A stretch of DNA of 9,095 nt from a virus (IMGVR_UViG_2534681655_000016), one strand, 5' to 3'; positions 1-9,095 are shown, numbered from the stretch's first letter. Program-made: numbers and translations. The notes: generated by a model not told the origin, from the sequence alone.

Positions 1-48
1 TTGTACTGCACCCATTTTGTTGGACGATGAAATGGAATAGCCCCTAAT

Positions 49-570
49 ATGTCAAAGCCAAAATACCCTTTTGAAAAGCGCCTTGAAGTCGTGAATCACT
101 ACTTCACAACTGATGATGGTTACAGGATCATCTCGGCACGTTTTGGTGTCCCCCGAACCCAGGTCAGGACATGGGTTGCCCTCTATGAAAAACATGGAGA
201 AAAAGGTTTAATTCCCAAACCTAAAGGCGTTAGTGCTGATCCAGAGTTGCGTATTAAGGTCGTGAAAGCTGTGATCGAGCAGCACATGTCCCTTAATCAG
301 GCTGCTGCTCACTTTATGCTTGCTGGTAGTGGTTCTGTAGCCAGGTGGCTGAAGGTCTATGAAGAGCGCGGAGAAGCTGGTTTACGCGCGCTCAAGATTG
401 GCACCAAAAGAAACATTGCAATATCAGTTGATCCAGAAAAAGCGGCATCAGCATTGGAGCTGTCAAAAGACCGACGCATTGAGGATCTTGAAAGGCAAGT
501 TCGATTTCTTGAAACGCGGCTTATGTATCTAAAAAAGCTGAAAGCCTTAGCTCATCCCACGAAAAAGTGA
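49..570 (+). CDS. insJ: IS150 transposase OrfA (InsJ), helix-turn-helix DNA-binding protein
   Basis: 173-aa ORF starting at ATG 49. The translation MSKPKYPFEKRLEVVNHYF... matches recalled IS150 InsJ. It ends in the TGA at 568..570, overlapping the orfB start. Confidence 0.9.
   Translation: MSKPKYPFEKRLEVVNHYFTTDDGYRIISARFGVPRTQVRTWVALYEKHGEKGLIPKPKGVSADPELRIKVVKAVIEQHMSLNQAAAHFMLAGSGSVARWLKVYEERGEAGLRALKIGTKRNIAISVDPEKAASALELSKDRRIEDLERQVRFLETRLMYLKKLKALAHPTKK
531..537 (+). other. Programmed -1 ribosomal frameshift slippery heptamer A-AAA-AAG (orfA to orfB fusion site)
   Basis: The sequence aaaaaag at 531..537 is phased as A AAA AAG in the insJ reading frame, near the 3' end of orfA. This is the canonical IS3-family/IS150 frameshift motif. 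Confidence 0.6.
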
Positions 571-1417
571 AAGTACTCAACGAGCTAAGGCAGTTTTATC
601 CTCTTGATGAGCTTCTCAGGGCTGCGGAGATACCGCGCAGTACGTTTTATTATCATCTAAAGGCTCTCAGCAAGCCTGACAAGTATGCGGACGTTAAAAA
701 GCGTATTAGTGAGATTTATCACGAGAATAGAGGCCGATACGGATACCGTAGGGTAACGCTGTCTCTTCATCGAGAAGGGAAACAGATTAACCATAAAGCT
801 GTTCAGCGCCTGATGGGAACCCTCTCACTTAAAGCAGCGATTAAGGTCAAGCGATACCGCTCTTACAGAGGAGAGGTAGGGCAAACCGCCCCTAATGTTC
901 TCCAAAGAGATTTCAAGGCTACGCGGCCAAACGAGAAGTGGGTTACCGATGTTACTGAATTTGCAGTCAATGGGCGCAAGCTGTATTTGTCTCCAGTAAT
1001 AGATCTCTTCAACAACGAAGTTATTTCTTACAGCCTTTCGGAAAGACCAGTGATGAACATGGTTGAGAATATGCCGATCAGGCATTCAAAAAGCTTAATC
1101 CTCACGAGCATCCTGTTCTGCACTCTGACCAGGGATGGCAGTATCGTATGAGAAGATATCAAAATATCCTTAAAGAACATGGTATTAAACAAAGCATGTC
1201 CAGAAAAGGCAATTGTCTGGATAATGCTGTGGTGGAGTGTTTCTTTGGAACCTTAAAGTCGGAGTGTTTTTATCTTGATGAGTTCAGTAATATAAGCGAA
1301 CTGAAGGATGCTGTTACGGAATATATTGAATACTACAACAGCAGAAGAATTAGCCTGAAATTAAAAGGTCTGACTCCAATTGAATATCGGAATCAGACCT
1401 ATATGCCTCGTGTTTAA
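567..1417 (+). pseudogene. insK: IS150 transposase OrfB (InsK, DDE catalytic domain), disrupted by an apparent 1-bp deletion near 1074
   Basis: The ORF track splits the expected ~283-aa protein into 567..1151 and 1148..1417. The first piece ends ...[29 protein letters not shown], while the same DNA read one frame over gives ...[30 protein letters not shown], containing the conserved HSDQG motif. This is consistent with loss of one base between atgc and cgatcagg (1071..1080). It starts at GTG 567. Confidence 0.75.
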
Positions 1418-1443
1418 CTGTCCAACTTTTTGGGGTCAGTACA

Positions 1444-2385
1444 CTGGAAGGCTTTCATCCAGAAACAGTCAAAGTGGAAAACATGCAGCGGCAGATTGCG
1501 TTCCGCCATACCATCGATAAAGCTGTTTACCGTCGCTTCGTCGTAGTTGGTGGTAAATGAAGTGGTTAGCCACAGGCCGAAGGACCACGCGGGCGGCAGC
1601 GCCGGACGACCAGTAAAGCGGGTATAACGATCAAGTACCGCTTTCGGCGTCGGGCCGTCGATAACAAAGTATTCGAGATATTCACTCTCAACGCTGAACT
1701 GCACTTTGGAGACTTTCTCCGATCCCACTTCAAAAGAGACACACTGGGGATGATTGACCAGTACCCCATAACCACGGTTAGTCATGTAGAACGGGATATT
1801 TTTATACGCCTGTTCAGTACTTGTGCCGCCGTCCCGGTTCCAGGTCTCTACCGTCTGGCCATTGCGCACCAGGGCAGTAAAGCGCTCTCCCAGACCGTAA
1901 ACTGTTTCGCCAACGCCAAGATCAAGCCGCTCAAACATATAATTGCGTTGATTATTCGTGTCCTGCACGTAGCCATTATTTTTCACCTGACTACCGGTAA
2001 TACGTTCGCCGTTGCGCAGAAAATCCAGTGACCAGAACTCACCTTTGCTGACACGCGCGCTTAAGTTGCCACTTTTAAACTCAGCATAACGTTCTGTGTT
2101 TTCGATTGTGACCTTCACGTCCTGCAAAATATTGAGCGGGTAATGAGGACCGTTATTCAGCGCCCCCTGAAAATGCTCAATCCGCACACCGACAATACCT
2201 TCCTGTGGGGAGAAAAAGCGCAGCGTAAATAAAGGCGTGTCAAGCTGCCAGGTACGTTCACGTACATCACGGGGGGCAGCATAGACCACCATTTCATTAT
2301 CCTGCTGTTCAACCTCGAACACCTGAAGCGGGTGAATCAAATTGAGGCCAGGTTGAATCAACCAGTTTCCATCGCTAATTTTCAT
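1444..2385 (-). pseudogene. yicI: 5' fragment of alpha-xylosidase gene yicI (glycoside hydrolase family 31), truncated by the IS150 insertion
   Basis: The minus-strand ORF starts at ATG 2385 ([25 protein letters not shown]...) and matches the YicI N-terminus. After about 314 native codons the frame crosses the IS150 right end at 1443/1444 and terminates inside the IS (tail CTDPKKLDS*). Full-length YicI is about 772 aa, so the C-terminal part including the catalytic region is missing here. Confidence 0.85.
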
Positions 2386-2394
2386 TGCCGTTCC

Positions 2395-3777
2395 TTAGTT
2401 CTGCACTTCTTGAGAGGTGAATTGTTGCTGGCAACGGCGTTTACCCTGAGCCAGCTGTTCCATAACGGTTTTCAGATTGTGCGTCGTGAGTGAGTAGTAG
2501 CGTTTAGCGATAATCGCGCTCAGCAAATAACAGATCGCCGGAACAATCGTGAATAGCGCAATAATGATGCTAATCGTGGCGCTGTTCTGCGCTTTTTCTG
2601 CCGCATCATATCCGCCATAAGCCAGCATCCAGCCGATAAGAGCGCCGCCGAAGGCCAACCCCAGTTTGAGCACAAACAGCGTGCCAGCAAAACTGATCCC
2701 GGTCAGGCGTTTACCATTGCACCACTCGCCGTAGTCGACGGTATCGGACATCATTACCCACTGGATAGGTGTCACCAGTTGATGCAACACACCAATCACG
2801 AAGATGAAGACAAACATAGTGATGCTGGCCTGCATGGGAACAAAGAACATCGCGAGGCTAATCACTGCCAGCAGGGCGTTCGTCCACCAGAAGATAGTGA
2901 CTTTACATTTCCAGTCGGTCAGAGGTTTTGCCAGTGCGGAACCAATCAGGTTACCCACGCAATAAGTGGTGAGAAAAGCGACAAACACTTCCGGCGTGCC
3001 CAAAATCCATGTGACGTAATACATCATCGCCCCACCGCGTACGCACACCGCCAGGATATTGAAAATGGTTAGTAAACCGACAATCCGCCACTGGTCGTTT
3101 TGCCAGATATCACGTAAATCTTCCCGCATAGACGTTGTTGTAGGTGGTGCTTCAACGCGTTCTTTAGTGGTGAAGAAACAAAATGCCAGCATCATGAATG
3201 CCACCACGGAAAGGACCGCGATACCGCCCTGGAAACCGAGTGGTTTATTATCACCGCCAATTAAATTAACCAGTGGCATCATCAGAACAGTAGAAAGCAT
3301 GCCTCCCGCGGTCGCCAGCACAAAACGCCAGGATTGCAGCGAGATACGCTGAGTCGGGTCATTGGTGATTACACCACCCAATGCGCAGTAAGGGATATTG
3401 ACGACGGTATAAAGTAAGGTAAGTAGGGTGTAAGTAATTGCTGCATAGATCATTTTGCCGTTCATACTGAGATCTGGCGTGCTATAGGCCAGTACACAGA
3501 CGATCCCGAATGGCAGTGCGCCAAACAGTACCCACGGACGAAATTTACCCCAGCGAGAGCGCGTTCGATCGGCCAACAACCCCATGCAAGGATCGGAAAT
3601 CGCATCCAGTGCACGAGCGACCAAAAACATGGTTCCGACAAAACCGGCAGGAATGCCAAAAATATCGGTATAAAAGAACATCATATATAACATTACGTTA
3701 TCGAAAATAATGTGGCTGGCGGCGTCTCCCATGCCATAACCAATTTTCTCTTTAACGGACAACACTTCACTCTTCAT
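2395..3777 (-). CDS. yicJ: Sugar (glycoside-pentoside-hexuronide family):cation symporter, YicJ
   Basis: Long hydrophobic multi-TM ORF whose translation from MKSEVLSVKEKIGYGMGDAASHIIF... matches YicJ (460 aa). I chose ATG 3777, which has a GAGGAA ribosome-binding site 6-8 nt upstream, over the ORF-track start at 3834. Its stop lies 9 bp upstream of the yicI start, giving operon arrangement yicJ-yicI. Confidence 0.9.
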   Translation of the reverse strand: MKSEVLSVKEKIGYGMGDAASHIIFDNVMLYMMFFYTDIFGIPAGFVGTMFLVARALDAISDPCMGLLADRTRSRWGKFRPWVLFGALPFGIVCVLAYSTPDLSMNGKMIYAAITYTLLTLLYTVVNIPYCALGGVITNDPTQRISLQSWRFVLATAGGMLSTVLMMPLVNLIGGDNKPLGFQGGIAVLSVVAFMMLAFCFFTTKERVEAPPTTTSMREDLRDIWQNDQWRIVGLLTIFNILAVCVRGGAMMYYVTWILGTPEVFVAFLTTYCVGNLIGSALAKPLTDWKCKVTIFWWTNALLAVISLAMFFVPMQASITMFVFIFVIGVLHQLVTPIQWVMMSDTVDYGEWCNGKRLTGISFAGTLFVLKLGLAFGGALIGWMLAYGGYDAAEKAQNSATISIIIALFTIVPAICYLLSAIIAKRYYSLTTHNLKTVMEQLAQGKRRCQQQFTSQEVQN

Positions 3778-4032
3778 CTGCTTTTCCTCGATGCTATAGG
3801 GGTGCTGAGACCGATAACGCATTTTGTAAACCATCCCTGTGAGAGCGAATATTCCGATATCTGGTTATTAATTTATGATTCTTGTTTTATGTGATCGTGG
3901 TAGCGTTAATTCCGCTCATATATCATTGTAAAATATGGGTTTTATATGAACTATAATGCTTTCGTGATAATACGCTGCGTGTATTAGGCGGAAAAAACTG
4001 ATCTGGGGGATGTAGAAACTCAAGGAAGTAGC

Positions 4033-4038
4033 TATAAT
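4033..4038 (+). promoter_or_regulatory. Putative -10 element (TATAAT) of the selC promoter
   Basis: Perfect TATAAT hexamer about 32 nt upstream of the mature tRNA 5' end. No strong -35 element is evident, so this is tentative. Confidence 0.35.
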
Positions 4039-4069
4039 GCGCCCCGCCTCCATGTAGCAATCGAGGCGC

Positions 4070-4164
4070 GGAAGATCGTCGTCTCCGGTGAGGCGGCTGG
4101 ACTTCAAATCCAGTTGGGGCCGCCAGCGGTCCCGGGCAGGTTCGACTCCTGTGATCTTCCGCCA
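4070..4164 (+). tRNA. selC: tRNA-Sec (selenocysteine tRNA, anticodon UCA), 95 nt, ending in CCA
   Basis: GGAAGATCGTCGTCTCCGGTGAGGCGGCTGGACTTCAAATCCAGTTGGGGCCGCCAGCGGTCCCGGGCAGGTTCGACTCCTGTGATCTTCCGCCA matches recalled E. coli selC. It has the long extra arm typical of tRNA-Sec and the anticodon TCA at 4104..4106. Confidence 0.92.
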
Positions 4165-4326: not shown

Positions 4327-5505
4327 ATGGCCCTAACCGATATACAGATCAAACGTGCAAAACCACAAGACAAACCATACACATTAAACGATGGGCAAGG
4401 TCTGTCATTGCTTATCAATCCCGATGGCTCGAAAGGCTGGCGTTTCCGTTTCCGGTTTGCAGGGAAAGCGCGGTTAATGTCATTTGGCAGCTACGATTTA
4501 GTAAGCCTCGCAGAAGCACGTGAGAAACGCGATACGGCTCGTAAGCAGGTAGCAAACGGCATTGATCCAGTAGCAGAGCGTAAGGCTCAGAAAATTGCTC
4601 AGAAATTATCAACTGAAAACTCTTTTGAGGCCGTTAGCAGAGAATGGCATGCAGCAAAAGCAGATCGCTGGACTTTAGCTTATCGCGAAGAAATTATTAA
4701 AACATTTGAACAGGATGTTTTTCCTTTCATTGGTAAACGGCCAATAGCTGAAATTAAACCCCTAGAACTGCTTGAAGTTCTTAAACGCATAGAAAAACGT
4801 GGAGCGTTGGAGAAAACCAGAAAAGTACGTCAACGATGCGGAGAGGTGTTTCGCTACGCGATCATCACTGGCCGCGCTGAATACAATCCAGCACCTGATT
4901 TAGCTATCGCATTAGCTGTACCGAAGCAAAAACATCATCCTTTTCTATCAGCAGAAGAACTCCCTCATTTTGTCAGAGATCTTGAGGCTTACACAGGTAG
5001 CATAATCACTAAAAATGCAACTAAAATTGTGATGCTTACTGGAGTCAGGACACAGGAAATGCGTTTTGCCACTTGGGACGAAATTGATTTACAAAAAAAG
5101 GTATGGGAAATACCGGCCGAACGAATGAAAATGCGCCGACCACATCTTGTACCACTCTCCACTCAAGTAGTTGAAATTTTTCAACAACTCAAGCTAATCA
5201 CCAAAAACTATCCATATATTTTTATCGGCCGTAATAATCACACTAAGCCAATTTCTAAAGAAAGTGTATCCCAAGTAATAGAATTACTTGGCTATAAAGG
5301 AAGAGCTACGGGCCACGGATTCCGCCATACAATGTCTACTATTTTGCATGAGTACGGATTTAACAGCGAATGGATAGAGTTACAATTGGCTCATGTTGAT
5401 AAGAATAGTATTCGAGGCACTTATAATCATGCCCAATATTTAGAAAAGAGAAGTTCTATGATGCAGTGGTACAGTGATTATATCCTTAATAGAGATAAAG
5501 CATAG
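4327..5505 (+). CDS. int: P4-type tyrosine recombinase/integrase (site-specific integrase of the selC-inserted satellite)
   Basis: 392-aa ORF starting 163 bp after the selC 3' end. The N-terminus (MALTDIQIKRAKPQDKPYTLNDGQGLSLLINPDGSKGWRFRFRF...) is the arm-binding region typical of P4-like integrases. The C-terminus carries catalytic-type residues in GHGFRHT, LAHV and RGTYNH (R...H..R..Y). Confidence 0.9.
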   Translation: MALTDIQIKRAKPQDKPYTLNDGQGLSLLINPDGSKGWRFRFRFAGKARLMSFGSYDLVSLAEAREKRDTARKQVANGIDPVAERKAQKIAQKLSTENSFEAVSREWHAAKADRWTLAYREEIIKTFEQDVFPFIGKRPIAEIKPLELLEVLKRIEKRGALEKTRKVRQRCGEVFRYAIITGRAEYNPAPDLAIALAVPKQKHHPFLSAEELPHFVRDLEAYTGSIITKNATKIVMLTGVRTQEMRFATWDEIDLQKKVWEIPAERMKMRRPHLVPLSTQVVEIFQQLKLITKNYPYIFIGRNNHTKPISKESVSQVIELLGYKGRATGHGFRHTMSTILHEYGFNSEWIELQLAHVDKNSIRGTYNHAQYLEKRSSMMQWYSDYILNRDKA

Positions 5506-5560
5506 AATAATAGAAGTTAATGCTGTATACTGTAAATTAACAATATAGTAAGGATTGAAA

Positions 5561-6427
5561 ATGAAGAAGACAGTACTTATAACTGATTTAGATAACACAC
5601 TATTCGACTGGTTTAGCGTTTGGTATCATAGCTTTAATGCAATGCTAAATAAAGTCGTTGAGATTTCCGGTTTTTCTAAAGACGAGCTTATTGCACAGAT
5701 AAAACCGATTCATCAAAAATATGGTACTGCCGAATACTCTTTTATTCTAGAAAGCATACCTCTTTTACAAGAAAAATATGGTGATAGAAACTCCATCAAT
5801 TTAGTTATGGATGATGCTATACACGCTTTCAGAAGTGAGAGAAAGAAATATCTTTCTCTGTACCCAACAGTAATGGACACTTTGAGTGTATTAAAAAGTA
5901 AAGGGTGTTATATTGTCGCGTATACTGAATCCAAAGCTTATTACTCCAATTTCCGCTTAACAAGATTAGGATTAGATGGTGTGATTGATGTCCTTTTCTC
6001 TCCTGAAGATCATGAAATCCCTGATGGTGAGAAAAAACAAGATAAATATAATCTAATGCTGACAAAGCAAGAATATACACCTATTGATGAAATTAAACCA
6101 AACCCACAACTTCTTCTGGACATAATAAAATCAATTGGTGCCACACCAGAAGAGTGTGTATATATAGGTGACAGTGAAATGAAAGATATAGAAATGGCCC
6201 AAAAAGCAAACGTATCAGATGTTTTTGCAAGCTATGGAACGAATCATTTTGAAGAGAACAAGGAGGGATATGAATTACTCCGTGCGGTAACCCACTGGAC
6301 TGATGCTGATGTTGAAAGGGAAAGAAAAATTAAAGAAAATGCCTTCGGAGCAAAACCCACATATGTAGCCAAACAATTTTCAGATATTTTGTCTTTTTTT
6401 GAATTTACCAAATTTAAAGGAAAATAG
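5561..6427 (+). CDS. HAD-superfamily (haloacid dehalogenase-like) hydrolase/phosphatase, cargo gene 1 of the satellite hotspot
   Basis: All four HAD motifs are present in order: motif I LITDLDNTLFDW (DxDxT), motif II IVAYTES, motif III conserved Lys in IKPNP, motif IV GDSEMKD (GDxxxD). There is a cap-like insertion between motifs I and II. An AAGGA ribosome-binding site lies 8 nt before ATG 5561; the ORF track's TTG at 5555 is less likely. The gene is very AT-rich compared with the flanks. Confidence 0.8.
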   Translation: MKKTVLITDLDNTLFDWFSVWYHSFNAMLNKVVEISGFSKDELIAQIKPIHQKYGTAEYSFILESIPLLQEKYGDRNSINLVMDDAIHAFRSERKKYLSLYPTVMDTLSVLKSKGCYIVAYTESKAYYSNFRLTRLGLDGVIDVLFSPEDHEIPDGEKKQDKYNLMLTKQEYTPIDEIKPNPQLLLDIIKSIGATPEECVYIGDSEMKDIEMAQKANVSDVFASYGTNHFEENKEGYELLRAVTHWTDADVERERKIKENAFGAKPTYVAKQFSDILSFFEFTKFKGK

Positions 6428-6428
6428 A

Positions 6429-7061
6429 ATGAACAATCTAGAATTAAAGAAACATGATGACGCTATAAAATTAGAAAATCTCAAGTTGAAAATTGATATC
6501 TGGAAGACAGTTGTTGACGTTCAGAAACATTTTAATGATCTTGAGATGAAGGTTAGAAACTTCGGAATTTTGATCTTGTCTGCATTTATTGGTGCAATTG
6601 GTGTAAGCTTTAATTCCGGCGCTGAATTTATAGCCTTTGGCAATCATTACTCTGTTGCTGCCATTCTTGCTTTCGGGGCATCTGTTGTTTGGTTGTTATT
6701 TTATTTTGTTGACGTTTACTGGTATCACCCATTACTTCTTGGAGCTGTAAAGAAAGGTTCAGAACTCGAAAAAGAAATTGCATCCGACATCCCAGGAATT
6801 AATCTTACAGAAACCATAGGAAAAAGTAGCCCAAAAGATATTTTGCTCTGGAAAAATATGCATAGTACTGGAAAAGCTAACCTTTTCTACTTTGGGGTTT
6901 TAGCTGTTCTGTTAACTATTTTTATTTCTCTACTGTGCTTTAAATCCCCGCAAAAGACAAATCAACTAAATGAATTAAATATTAAAGCAAATTGCACTAG
7001 AAACAGTAATTACAATGGAGTTAATTGCATTATCGCATCACAGCCAAGTGACAACAAATAG
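6429..7061 (+). CDS. Small membrane protein with a charged, coiled-coil-like N-terminal domain and three predicted transmembrane helices, cargo gene 2
   Basis: ATG 6429 lies 1 nt after the HAD stop (TAG 6425..6427), with an AAGGA ribosome-binding site inside the upstream gene's 3' end, suggesting translational coupling. The protein has three hydrophobic segments: FGILILSAFIGAIGVSF, YSVAAILAFGASVVWLLFYFVDVYWY and FYFGVLAVLLTIFISLLCF. The N-terminal ~45 aa are Lys/Glu-rich. No enzymatic motif was recognised. Confidence 0.75.
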   Translation: MNNLELKKHDDAIKLENLKLKIDIWKTVVDVQKHFNDLEMKVRNFGILILSAFIGAIGVSFNSGAEFIAFGNHYSVAAILAFGASVVWLLFYFVDVYWYHPLLLGAVKKGSELEKEIASDIPGINLTETIGKSSPKDILLWKNMHSTGKANLFYFGVLAVLLTIFISLLCFKSPQKTNQLNELNIKANCTRNSNYNGVNCIIASQPSDNK

Positions 7062-7151
7062 TGCACTTTATCACTCTTTACCCCAACTGCATGTACTTAC
7101 CTTGTGAGCACAGAGACGCGCTATAAATAAACACTTTACTGCTGGCGGGCG

Positions 7152-7170
7152 GTGCTTTCCCCGCCTCGCC
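7152..7170 (-). other. cos: P2/P4-type cos site (19-nt cohesive-end sequence GGCGAGGCGGGGAAAGCAC) with flanking 7-bp inverted repeats
   Basis: The plus strand reads GTGCTTTCCCCGCCTCGCC, the exact reverse complement of the recalled P2/P4 cohesive end. It is flanked by inverted repeats GCGGGCG (7145..7151) and CGCCCGC (7171..7177). Its position downstream of psu matches the P4 genome map. Confidence 0.7.
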
Positions 7171-7271
7171 CGCCCGCTTTGCGGGGCGGTTTTAATGCAG
7201 TTGCACTGACACGCTCAGGCCGCGCCGGGAATGGCGCGGTCTGCAGAAAATGAGGCAGGAAAACGCATGCA

Positions 7272-7306
7272 AAGCCATGCACCTTATCGATGCATGGCTT
7301 TTTTCA
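7272..7306 (+). terminator. Rho-independent terminator-like hairpin (10-bp perfect stem AAGCCATGCA/TGCATGGCTT, 9-nt loop, then a T-run)
   Basis: Perfect inverted repeat at 7272..7281 and 7291..7300, followed by TTTT (6 T's counting the stem end). It lies between the convergent cargo operon and psu. The plus-strand orientation is canonical; the minus strand has a weaker U-tract. Confidence 0.5.
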
Positions 7307-7334
7307 GTAAAAACGGGCGGATTTTCGGGGAATT

Positions 7335-7907
7335 TTACACAGACTGACGTGATGCCAGTTGCGCACTTTTACGCGAAAAAATCATGTTCTGCGCAGGGGT
7401 GAATTTTTCACGGCTGTCATCCACCGAAGCCGCGTCAGGCCTGAATCCGATGGTCGTTAAAATGTCGCTATCCTGTGCGGAATAATTAATTTTTTCCCCC
7501 TTCGCAAGCCAGGACAGAAGGGCTTCACGCAGGGCATCTGTGGCACGCTGTATGGCACAGTTTCGGGCAATGGCCGTCAGCTCACTGTAGCCCATCAGCT
7601 CCGGTGCCAGTGCCGCCGCCAGTGCTGTGCCGTGCTGCTGCATAAAATCATTCAGCCGGTCGCGGATGCTGATGTGCTGAACGGCTTCATGCGAACGAAT
7701 ATAACGACCGGCAGCCTGATTCACCTGCCATTTTCTGACTTCGATAATATTGCGTAATTCGTCCAGGCGACTGACGTTTCTGCCTTCCCCGGACAGAAGC
7801 CGCAGATATTCCTGTTCGGCCGCAGCCAGCTCATTTTTGCGTTGCAGCCATGCTGCTTTGTTATTCTGACAGGTGTCAAAGGCCTGCTGTAAGGCTGTGC
7901 TTTCCAT
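7335..7907 (-). CDS. psu: P4 Psu (polarity suppression / capsid decoration protein)
   Basis: 190-aa ORF whose length and sequence (MESTALQQAFDTCQNNKAAWLQRKNELAAAEQEYLRLL...) match recalled phage P4 Psu. It is the last gene of the sid-delta-psu late operon. Confidence 0.88.
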   Translation of the reverse strand: MESTALQQAFDTCQNNKAAWLQRKNELAAAEQEYLRLLSGEGRNVSRLDELRNIIEVRKWQVNQAAGRYIRSHEAVQHISIRDRLNDFMQQHGTALAAALAPELMGYSELTAIARNCAIQRATDALREALLSWLAKGEKINYSAQDSDILTTIGFRPDAASVDDSREKFTPAQNMIFSRKSAQLASRQSV

Positions 7908-7980
7908 CGTTATCTCTTTCTCATCATGCTGAAGAATAAAAATACGGTGTGCGGCGACGGCCGGGGTTAACCGGCAGCCC

Positions 7981-8481
7981 TCATTCCAGACGCAGCGAAT
8001 ATGATTGTGTTTTTAACCGTACTGGCGGCAGTTCCTGTTTTTCATGCAGGCGTTCTGCCAGTTCGTCCGGTGTGACCGGGCGGACAATGAAGCGGTTGAT
8101 GGTCTGAAGCGTTTTAAACACCAGACCACAGCCCGGATCCGTGCACACATAAAAACGTTCGGTGACTTCCTGAGACAGACGCCGCGATGTTCTTGACAGT
8201 GCAAGGCCTTTACATCTCCGACAACAATATCCGGTAACAAGCATTCTTTTCGGGCGTTTCATACTGCCGGAGGCAGAAGTCAGTGAATCGCGGTATCTCT
8301 GTTTGCCTGAAATGTATTCCATTCCTGAATCTTTACAGTCAGAGAAAAAGCTTTCACTCGCTTCAAATGTCGCAGAGCAATAAATATTCCGGCACTGTGC
8401 AATCATTATCTTGGTGCCATCGTCCATGAAATGTGCGCGGCGGGTGTGAGCAACATGTCCACACGACGGGCAGTAAATCAT
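7981..8481 (-). CDS. delta: P4 Delta (Ogr-like tandem zinc-finger late-gene transcriptional activator)
   Basis: 166-aa ORF with two Cys-rich Ogr-like repeats (CPSCGHVAHTRR...C...C and C..C......CTDPGCG). Its size matches P4 delta. The ATG overlaps the sid stop in an ATGA arrangement at 8478..8481. Confidence 0.88.
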   Translation of the reverse strand: MIYCPSCGHVAHTRRAHFMDDGTKIMIAQCRNIYCSATFEASESFFSDCKDSGMEYISGKQRYRDSLTSASGSMKRPKRMLVTGYCCRRCKGLALSRTSRRLSQEVTERFYVCTDPGCGLVFKTLQTINRFIVRPVTPDELAERLHEKQELPPVRLKTQSYSLRLE

Positions 8482-9095
8482 GACAGCAGTCCTCTGGCCT
8501 TAAGCTCTGCACCCTGCTGGTCTATTTTGTCCTGCCACACCTTGCGCTGTGCCGGTGTGCCTGCCACCTCATAATCCATGTGCGGGAGTGTTGCCGCTGA
8601 CAGTCCGGTCAGCCGGAGAACCGGCTCGCCGGTGAGGCTGATTTGCATCTGTTTTATTTTCTGTTCCAGCGATGATTTCACCTGCTGCATGACAGCTTTA
8701 TCGGGTGCGACGTAGCCCTGATGCCCGGTGGTGTTGGCGAGCGGATTTTCCTGTACCAGAATGCTCAGATGCATTGCCCGGACAAGCGCCTCACAGGTTT
8801 CATTCAGGGCGTGTTCCAGCTCATGCTCTGCATACAGACTCAGAGGTGATGATGTGCCTTCCGGTAGGCGGTGGCCGTGCTGTCACACGCCCCTTTCAGG
8901 CGTTCACGTTCGAAATTCAGCACCACGGCCAGATTGTCATATTCCTGTACCAGCTCCCGGCGTGCCACGCGCTCAATGTGGCGCTGTTTCAGCTCGTCGC
9001 TCAGGACACCACCGGCTGCACGAAAGGCCGTGCGCCAGTCGTCAGCGTCGTTTCCGTCGGCCTGCGCCAGCGCATTTTTTTCCTGCTCTGCCCGT
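8478..9095 (-). pseudogene. sid: P4 Sid (capsid size-determination external scaffold), apparently frameshifted; the 5' end lies beyond the window
   Basis: The C-terminal part is in the frame ending at TGA 8478..8480 and is open back to a stop at 8883..8885. The N-terminal part (RAEQEKNALAQADGNDADDWRTAFRAAGGVLSDELKQRHIERVARRELVQEYDNLAVVLNFERERLKGACDSTATAYRKAHHHL*) is in a different frame, running from the window edge to a TGA at 8840..8842. The two frames overlap at 8843..8882 and their combined length fits the ~244-aa Sid, implying a 1-bp indel there. Confidence 0.7.

Follow-up and report, generated by a model that had tools for sequence, protein, structure and literature searches.

Organization of the locus

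The window, that is, the whole 9,095-nt stretch of DNA analysed here, carries a stray base at its first position, followed by the insertion sequence IS150, a truncated copy of the alpha-xylosidase gene yicI (yicI'), the transporter gene yicJ, the tRNA gene selC, and a P4-like satellite prophage that extends from its integrase gene at position 4327 onward (Table 1). Base for base, the window is the reverse complement of an entire draft contig, APXH01000137.1 (assembly GCA_000356465.2). This contig ends 1 nt beyond IS150, so that the far side of the element is unreadable within the window, and reading it there was ruled out for that reason.

Table 1. Features of the window between its first base and selC.
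Feature	Position	Strand	Remarks
Single base 't'	1..1		Left of IS150, at the contig end; no match to the true left flank ...caccaCTG
IS150 (IS3 family)	2..1443	+	1442 bp here vs 1443 bp canonical; 99.5–99.8% identity to annotated copies
Left terminal inverted repeat (IRL), TGTACTGCACCC...	2..32	+	Inverted-repeat pair with IRR
Right terminal inverted repeat (IRR), ...GGGGTCAGTACA	1413..1443	+	Inverted-repeat pair with IRL
IS150 orfA, 173 aa, helix-turn-helix	49..570	+	Pfam HTH_28/HTH_23
A-AAA-AAG slippery heptamer, programmed -1 frameshift to OrfAB	531..537	+	Read from sequence
IS150 orfB, rve / DDE integrase core	567..1417	+	Split here: 567..1151 and 1148..1417
Terminator-like hairpin in IS150 right end, 15-bp stem followed by T-rich tail	1366..1400	-	Predicted function
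Fusion ORF, 323 aa: 314 YicI codons, 9 IS150 right-end codons, stop	1414..2385	-
Target-site duplication CTG, right-hand copy	1444..1446		Codon 314 (CAG) of yicI
yicI', codons 1–314, GH31 alpha-xylosidase: N-terminal domain and start of barrel	1444..2385	-	NF007940
yicJ, intact 460-aa GPH-family transporter, first gene of the yicJI pair	2395..3777	-	9-nt gap to yicI
selC, tRNA-Sec	4070..4164	+	Boundary between the yicJI backbone and the P4-like island

The truncated yicI gene and its fusion product

The yicI portion of the window (exactly 942 nt) matches the NCBIfam alpha-xylosidase model NF007940 over profile positions 1–316 of 771 (E=4e-162), and it differs by 2 nt and one amino acid from the intact YicI allele of strain ET82, which itself matches the solved structures 1WE5, 1XSI, and 2F2H with 1862 bits over residues 1–772. 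Two proposals of an earlier note on this DNA, namely that the reading frame is that of YicI and that it runs into the right end of IS150 after about 314 native codons, are borne out by these matches. The profile score of 541.4 bits falls below the curated cutoff of 606, so that the gene, being truncated, does not rank as a functional YicI under this model. At the insertion site the intact gene of strain ET82 reads caccaCTGgaaggc, and the right flank of IS150 in the window (CAGTACA/CTGgaaggc) is therefore native yicI sequence from its initial CTG onward, just as had been proposed.

Past codon 314, the frame continues through nine codons and a stop that are supplied by the right end of IS150, giving a C-terminal sequence of ...KAFQ/CTDPKKLDS before the stop codon. 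Database entries for E. coli P0298942.2 and 2845350, EMW28174.1 among them, contain exactly this 323-aa fusion protein; the name P0298942 gave no match in a literature search. In full-length YicI, the motifs KTD416FGE and HWGGD482C sit beyond residue 314, and both of their Asp residues are absent from the window's ORF; we take D416 to be the catalytic nucleophile and D482 the acid/base (numbering of Lovering et al., 2005). YicI is described as having two catalytic Asp residues (PMC5745559). Because Asp416 and Asp482 both fall in the severed 3' piece, no active alpha-xylosidase should be produced, and the loss of this activity that the earlier note had anticipated is accordingly what the sequence predicts.

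Compared with YicI, the GH31 enzyme of known structure (PDB 1WE5, 1XSI, 2F2H), the window's product is encoded at the same site beside yicJ and selC, and over residues 1–314 it is one substitution away from an intact allele. It is, however, cut at residue 314, gains nine IS-encoded residues, and has lost Asp416, Asp482, and the greater part of the barrel; the 3' part of the gene lies across the IS.

Apart from this insertion, independent yicI lesions within codons 315–331 were observed in other E. coli assemblies (L013, L014, L015, L016, and L018), consisting either in the loss of a single nucleotide at nt 972 or 981 or in a nonsense codon at position 315 or 320. These lesions show that yicI is repeatedly pseudogenised in E. 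coli, in a sample that is biased by the look-up of the 442-aa distal ORF through which it was obtained.

The IS150 element

Many copies annotated as 'IS3-like element IS150 family transposase' align with the element in the window at the identity given in Table 1. Its ends are 31-nt imperfect terminal inverted repeats (TGTACTG...CAGTACA) that are 71% complementary. The orfA frame reads cTA AAA AAG at the slippery heptamer, and the RefSeq annotation of the same element carries the label 'programmed frameshift'; the -1 frameshift mechanism of IS150 is cited in PMC11708052 (its ref 18). The two OrfB pieces match NF033516 at profile positions 93–263 and 290–369, together with Pfam rve, the reading frame being broken between them by a 1-nt deletion. 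The element shares with IS150 of E. coli (insJ/insK) its near-complete sequence identity, its termini, a 3-bp duplication, and, apart from the break in orfB, its orfA/orfB arrangement with the A-AAA-AAG heptamer, and it differs in lacking one orfB base that is present in sister contigs.

The missing nucleotide follows position 1075, where the window reads ATGC-CGATC and eight other copies read ATGCTCGA or ATGCTCGATC. This copy accordingly measures 1442 bp, as against 1443 bp in seven others. Among the copies compared, the deletion is unique to the window's contig; sister contig L007 has an A at this site (ATGCACGATC), and the position appears as T, A, or a gap across sister assemblies. Strain 510016 holds about eight copies of IS150, and sister contigs end at many different points within the element; because they break so variously within a multi-copy repeat, the IS portion of the contig is likely a collapsed consensus. 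The 1-nt deletion is probably an assembly error in this collapsed repeat. A truly defective IS150 with a split orfB is less likely, given the T or A that sister contigs show there, although the transposase of this particular copy would be inactive if the deletion were real.

The distal half of yicI and the target-site duplication

The far side of IS150 was sought by exact look-up of two sequences, the fusion ORF and the 442-aa ORF present in the distal piece of yicI. About 20 sister assemblies have contigs bearing the fusion ORF. In one of these, GCA_000356165.2 from the same isolate series, the 323-aa fusion ORF recurs unchanged on contig AQET01000044.1 (L003), together with the IS150 right end and the same P4-like island. 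Contig AQET01000054.1 (L019) of that assembly, retrieved with the 442-aa ORF, opens with 254 nt of the IS150 left end, equal to window positions 2..255. Beyond these 254 nt, L019 continues with CAG/TGGTGCGATTTTGAG, corresponding to yicI codons 315–772 with no stop and only one synonymous nucleotide different from strain ET82, and then with yicH, xanP, and gltS. The reciprocal left junction is thus present on contigs separate from those bearing the fusion ORF (L019 and L020). Furthermore, two complete genomes, NZ_CP025851.1 (strain 510016) and CP025886.1, contain the arrangement yicJ-yicI'-IS150-'yicI-yicH in one piece, and RefSeq already annotates both yicI halves as pseudogenes in strain 510016. 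As the earlier note had expected for a simple insertion, the rest of yicI lies across the IS, as codons 315–772 in L019 and likewise in the two complete genomes.

The left junction reads ...caccaCTG/TGTACTG in L019, strain 510016, and CP025886. This left-hand CTG, read in those three sequences and lying outside the window, matches the CTG at the right junction of the window, and IS150 is therefore flanked by CTG on both sides. Simple IS150 insertion typically leaves a 3-bp duplication, and IS150-adjacent deletions occur without one (PMC11708052). The search for a target-site duplication suggested in the earlier note was thus successful, and the structures of L019, strain 510016, and CP025886 agree with the simple insertion that it had considered, as opposed to a deletion or rearrangement.

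Taken together, the locus very probably records one simple IS150 insertion in codon 314 of yicI, which inactivated yicI and spared yicJ. IS150 would have entered this codon by the ordinary copy-and-paste transposition of IS3-family elements, copying the 3-bp target CTG in the process. The right end of the element abuts the proximal part of yicI because the transposase genes point opposite to yicI. The gene is thereby divided into a 5' piece encoding residues 1–314 plus nine IS-derived residues and a 3' piece encoding residues 315–772, the latter lacking both a promoter and a start codon of its own.

Distribution of the insertion and competing explanations

The insertion is common to closely related E. 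coli isolates from humans, represented by the P0298942.x and 2845350 drafts, strain 510016, and CP025886. Strain 510016 matches window positions 2..4164 exactly, except where the window lacks one IS nucleotide and where a few bases differ at the right junction. Both yicI halves are otherwise devoid of stops and frameshifts, and the insertion event is therefore judged to be recent.

The right junction differs between the drafts and the complete genomes. In both of the latter (L001:13444-13452; L017, which is CP025886.1), at the site equivalent to window 1444-1451, it reads TGTCGAGG rather than the native CTGGAAGG, with five consecutive bases changed exactly at the end of the IS, and the CTG duplication is not intact there. 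This junction (TGT/CGAGGCTTTC) fits the consensus of IS150 flanks described below perfectly. Multi-mapped IS150 reads may have introduced it during polishing, or it may reflect a genuine micro-conversion.

The different junctions (CTGGAAGG in the window and TGTCGAGG in the two complete genomes) are compatible with independent insertions in the P0298942-type drafts and in 510016/CP025886, both directed to a sequence-specified IS150 hotspot. The selC islands also differ, a P4-like satellite occupying the window and another integrase island occupying strain 510016, and the flank that IS150 prefers (YGRGGC at +4..+9) has a partial counterpart at the yicI site. We nevertheless regard separate insertions as unlikely: position and orientation are identical, of 5426 complete E. 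coli genomes in RefSeq just one has IS150 at this position, and 4.16 kb of flank and IS DNA are identical, including two SNPs relative to the best intact allele. It is this 4.16-kb identity that favours one event.

An IS150-adjacent deletion, or an inversion via another IS150 copy, would have left DNA other than yicI to the left of the element in this isolate, and the terminal bases might be taken as a sign of this. Where ...actg would be expected in front of the IS left end, the window shows 't' and sister contig L005 shows 'cagt', whereas L019 and the two complete genomes read ...CACCACTG; in addition, IS150-adjacent deletions without target duplication are frequent in lines of the E. coli long-term evolution experiment, or LTEE (PMC11708052). 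These signs, however, amount to one to four bases at contig ends, beside a repeat present in about seven to eight copies per genome (eight IS150 places in strain 510016), and the varied breaks of sister contigs within IS150 are the signature of repeat collapse and not of a real junction. Moreover, a sister assembly that shares the fusion ORF and the island joins distal yicI to the IS150 left end with a matching CTG, and two complete genomes have the simple structure. The terminal 't' and 'cagt' were consequently rejected as evidence of rearrangement, being contradicted by L019 and both complete genomes, and the 't' at position 1 is probably bleed at the contig end from another IS150 copy, or an error. 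A rearrangement of this kind is very improbable.

Finally, the notion that the IS150-yicI join is an assembly chimera and that yicI is really intact draws on the collapsed appearance of the contig's IS (the 1-nt deletion, with T, A, or a gap in sister assemblies), but it is scarcely credible in view of the exact 323-aa fusion protein on at least 15 contigs from independent assemblies, the reciprocal left junction on separate contigs (L019 and L020), and the same structure in two finished genomes.

yicJ and expression around the insertion

The yicJ gene matches NF008526 over positions 1–460 of 460 with 1055.7 bits, above the cutoff of 836, and it shows no DNA difference from the WP_000834439.1 allele found in strain 510016; the view that the transporter is intact therefore holds. 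Its description as 'orphaned' is apt only in a limited sense, since its own expression, with yicJ placed ahead of yicI, should be unaffected. Since yicJ lies upstream of yicI and the promoter region toward selC is untouched, expression of yicJ should persist, and the transporter is presumably still made. Transcripts of yicJI would probably end at the strong hairpin 1400..1366 on the minus strand, just past the stop codon of the fusion ORF.

The earlier note had also raised the idea that the outward-facing IS end alters the expression of neighbouring genes, and this finds no support here: a simple sigma-70 scan returned no sigma-70-like site across the junction that could serve as an outward promoter at the IS150 right end, and no operon gene lies downstream of yicI because yicH is convergent.

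The P4-like satellite at selC

Beyond selC, the window is occupied by a P4-like satellite prophage integrated at this tRNA gene (4327–9095), and the contig ends inside the island. Its recognizable genes include an integrase (4327–5505), psu (7335–7907, minus strand), ogr/delta (7981–8481, minus strand), and a sid-like ORF that, compared with sister contigs, is frameshifted by a gap of 1 nt near 8844. Within 7311–8844 the sister contigs show a cluster of SNPs, which suggests that several P4-like copies have been collapsed in the assembly.

Between the integrase and psu lies a variable slot containing genes for a HAD-type hydrolase and a small membrane protein (5561–6427 and 6429–7061). The slot proteins match PADLOC candidate defence models, namely 'Hydrolase' PDLC03008 (6e-198) and 'Hydrolase-TM' PDLC03009 (7e-140), and one RefSeq record names the slot genes misB and misC.

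Flank preference of IS150

The sequences into which IS150 is inserted were also compared. An initial set of four look-alike flanks was biased, having been drawn from a ranking that favoured similar flanks, and the analysis was repeated on an unbiased sample, for which collections of metagenomes and of species-representative genomes were scanned for the 24-mer that ends the IS. The loci compared in all were window 1444-1456, L021-L024, and L026-L221. In the unbiased sample, 22 distinct right flanks belonged to elements with at least 90% identity to IS150, and 12 of them carry YGRGGC at +4..+9 after the IS end, often followed by TTTC, with the highest information at G+7, G+8, and C+9. The yicI site, CTG/GAAGGCTTTC, is a partial match to this motif and resembles a plasmid hok site, GCT/TGAGGCTTTC.

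In at least 11 flanks, a Hok-family ORF begins 70–96 nt downstream of IS150 or of its 95%-identical relatives (L062, L081, L124, L082, L118, L221, L220, L223, L080, L099, and L033; also L021:1744-2057), and in IncF-type plasmids the IS is located between psiA and mok/hok. At four motif sites (L026, L044, L058, and L097), no such Hok-family ORF was found within the 600 nt searched. IS150 lies at hokA in K-12, and it is reportedly found at hokB/sokB in the LTEE; the placement at hok/sok leaders observed here fits these sites. A non-exhaustive literature search for a published IS150 target consensus turned up nothing specific.

A possible reading of these flanks, which we consider doubtful, is that IS150 selects its targets by an asymmetric flank consisting of the 3-bp target plus YGRGGC(TTTC), as at hok/sok leaders, and that the yicI site mimics such a flank. 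If this were true, yicI would be a predictable, recurrent target of IS150, and the loss of YicI with retention of YicJ could be a repeated, possibly selected, event in gut E. coli. The flank preference may help in predicting IS150 hotspots.

The exact 24 nt of the IRR (GTCCAACTTTTTGGGGTCAGTACA) also occur, in the genome scan, in elements of many Streptococcus species, Fusobacterium, Alistipes, Anaerosphaera, and others (L145-L264). Among those Streptococcus elements that were checked, OrfB shares only about 48–50% identity with IS150 OrfB, and the flanks of such Streptococcus-type elements with an exact IRR are T-rich and often terminator-like (GCC followed by a run of T).

Implications

The disruption of yicI is an ordinary gene-inactivating IS150 insertion, already known in kind, and involves no new mechanism. 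It resembles other IS-generated pseudogenes of E. coli and Shigella (e.g., those of IS150 in the LTEE) in its 3-bp duplication and in the inactivation of a dispensable catabolic gene, and it differs from them in no notable respect. For annotation purposes, the locus is best described as two pseudogene halves and one fusion ORF, rather than as a 'glycosyl hydrolase 31 family protein'. With regard to the biology of the organism, one human-derived lineage of E. coli would have lost its YicI alpha-xylosidase through a recent hop of IS150 while keeping the YicJ transporter, and the yicI::IS150 insertion could act as a marker of that lineage.
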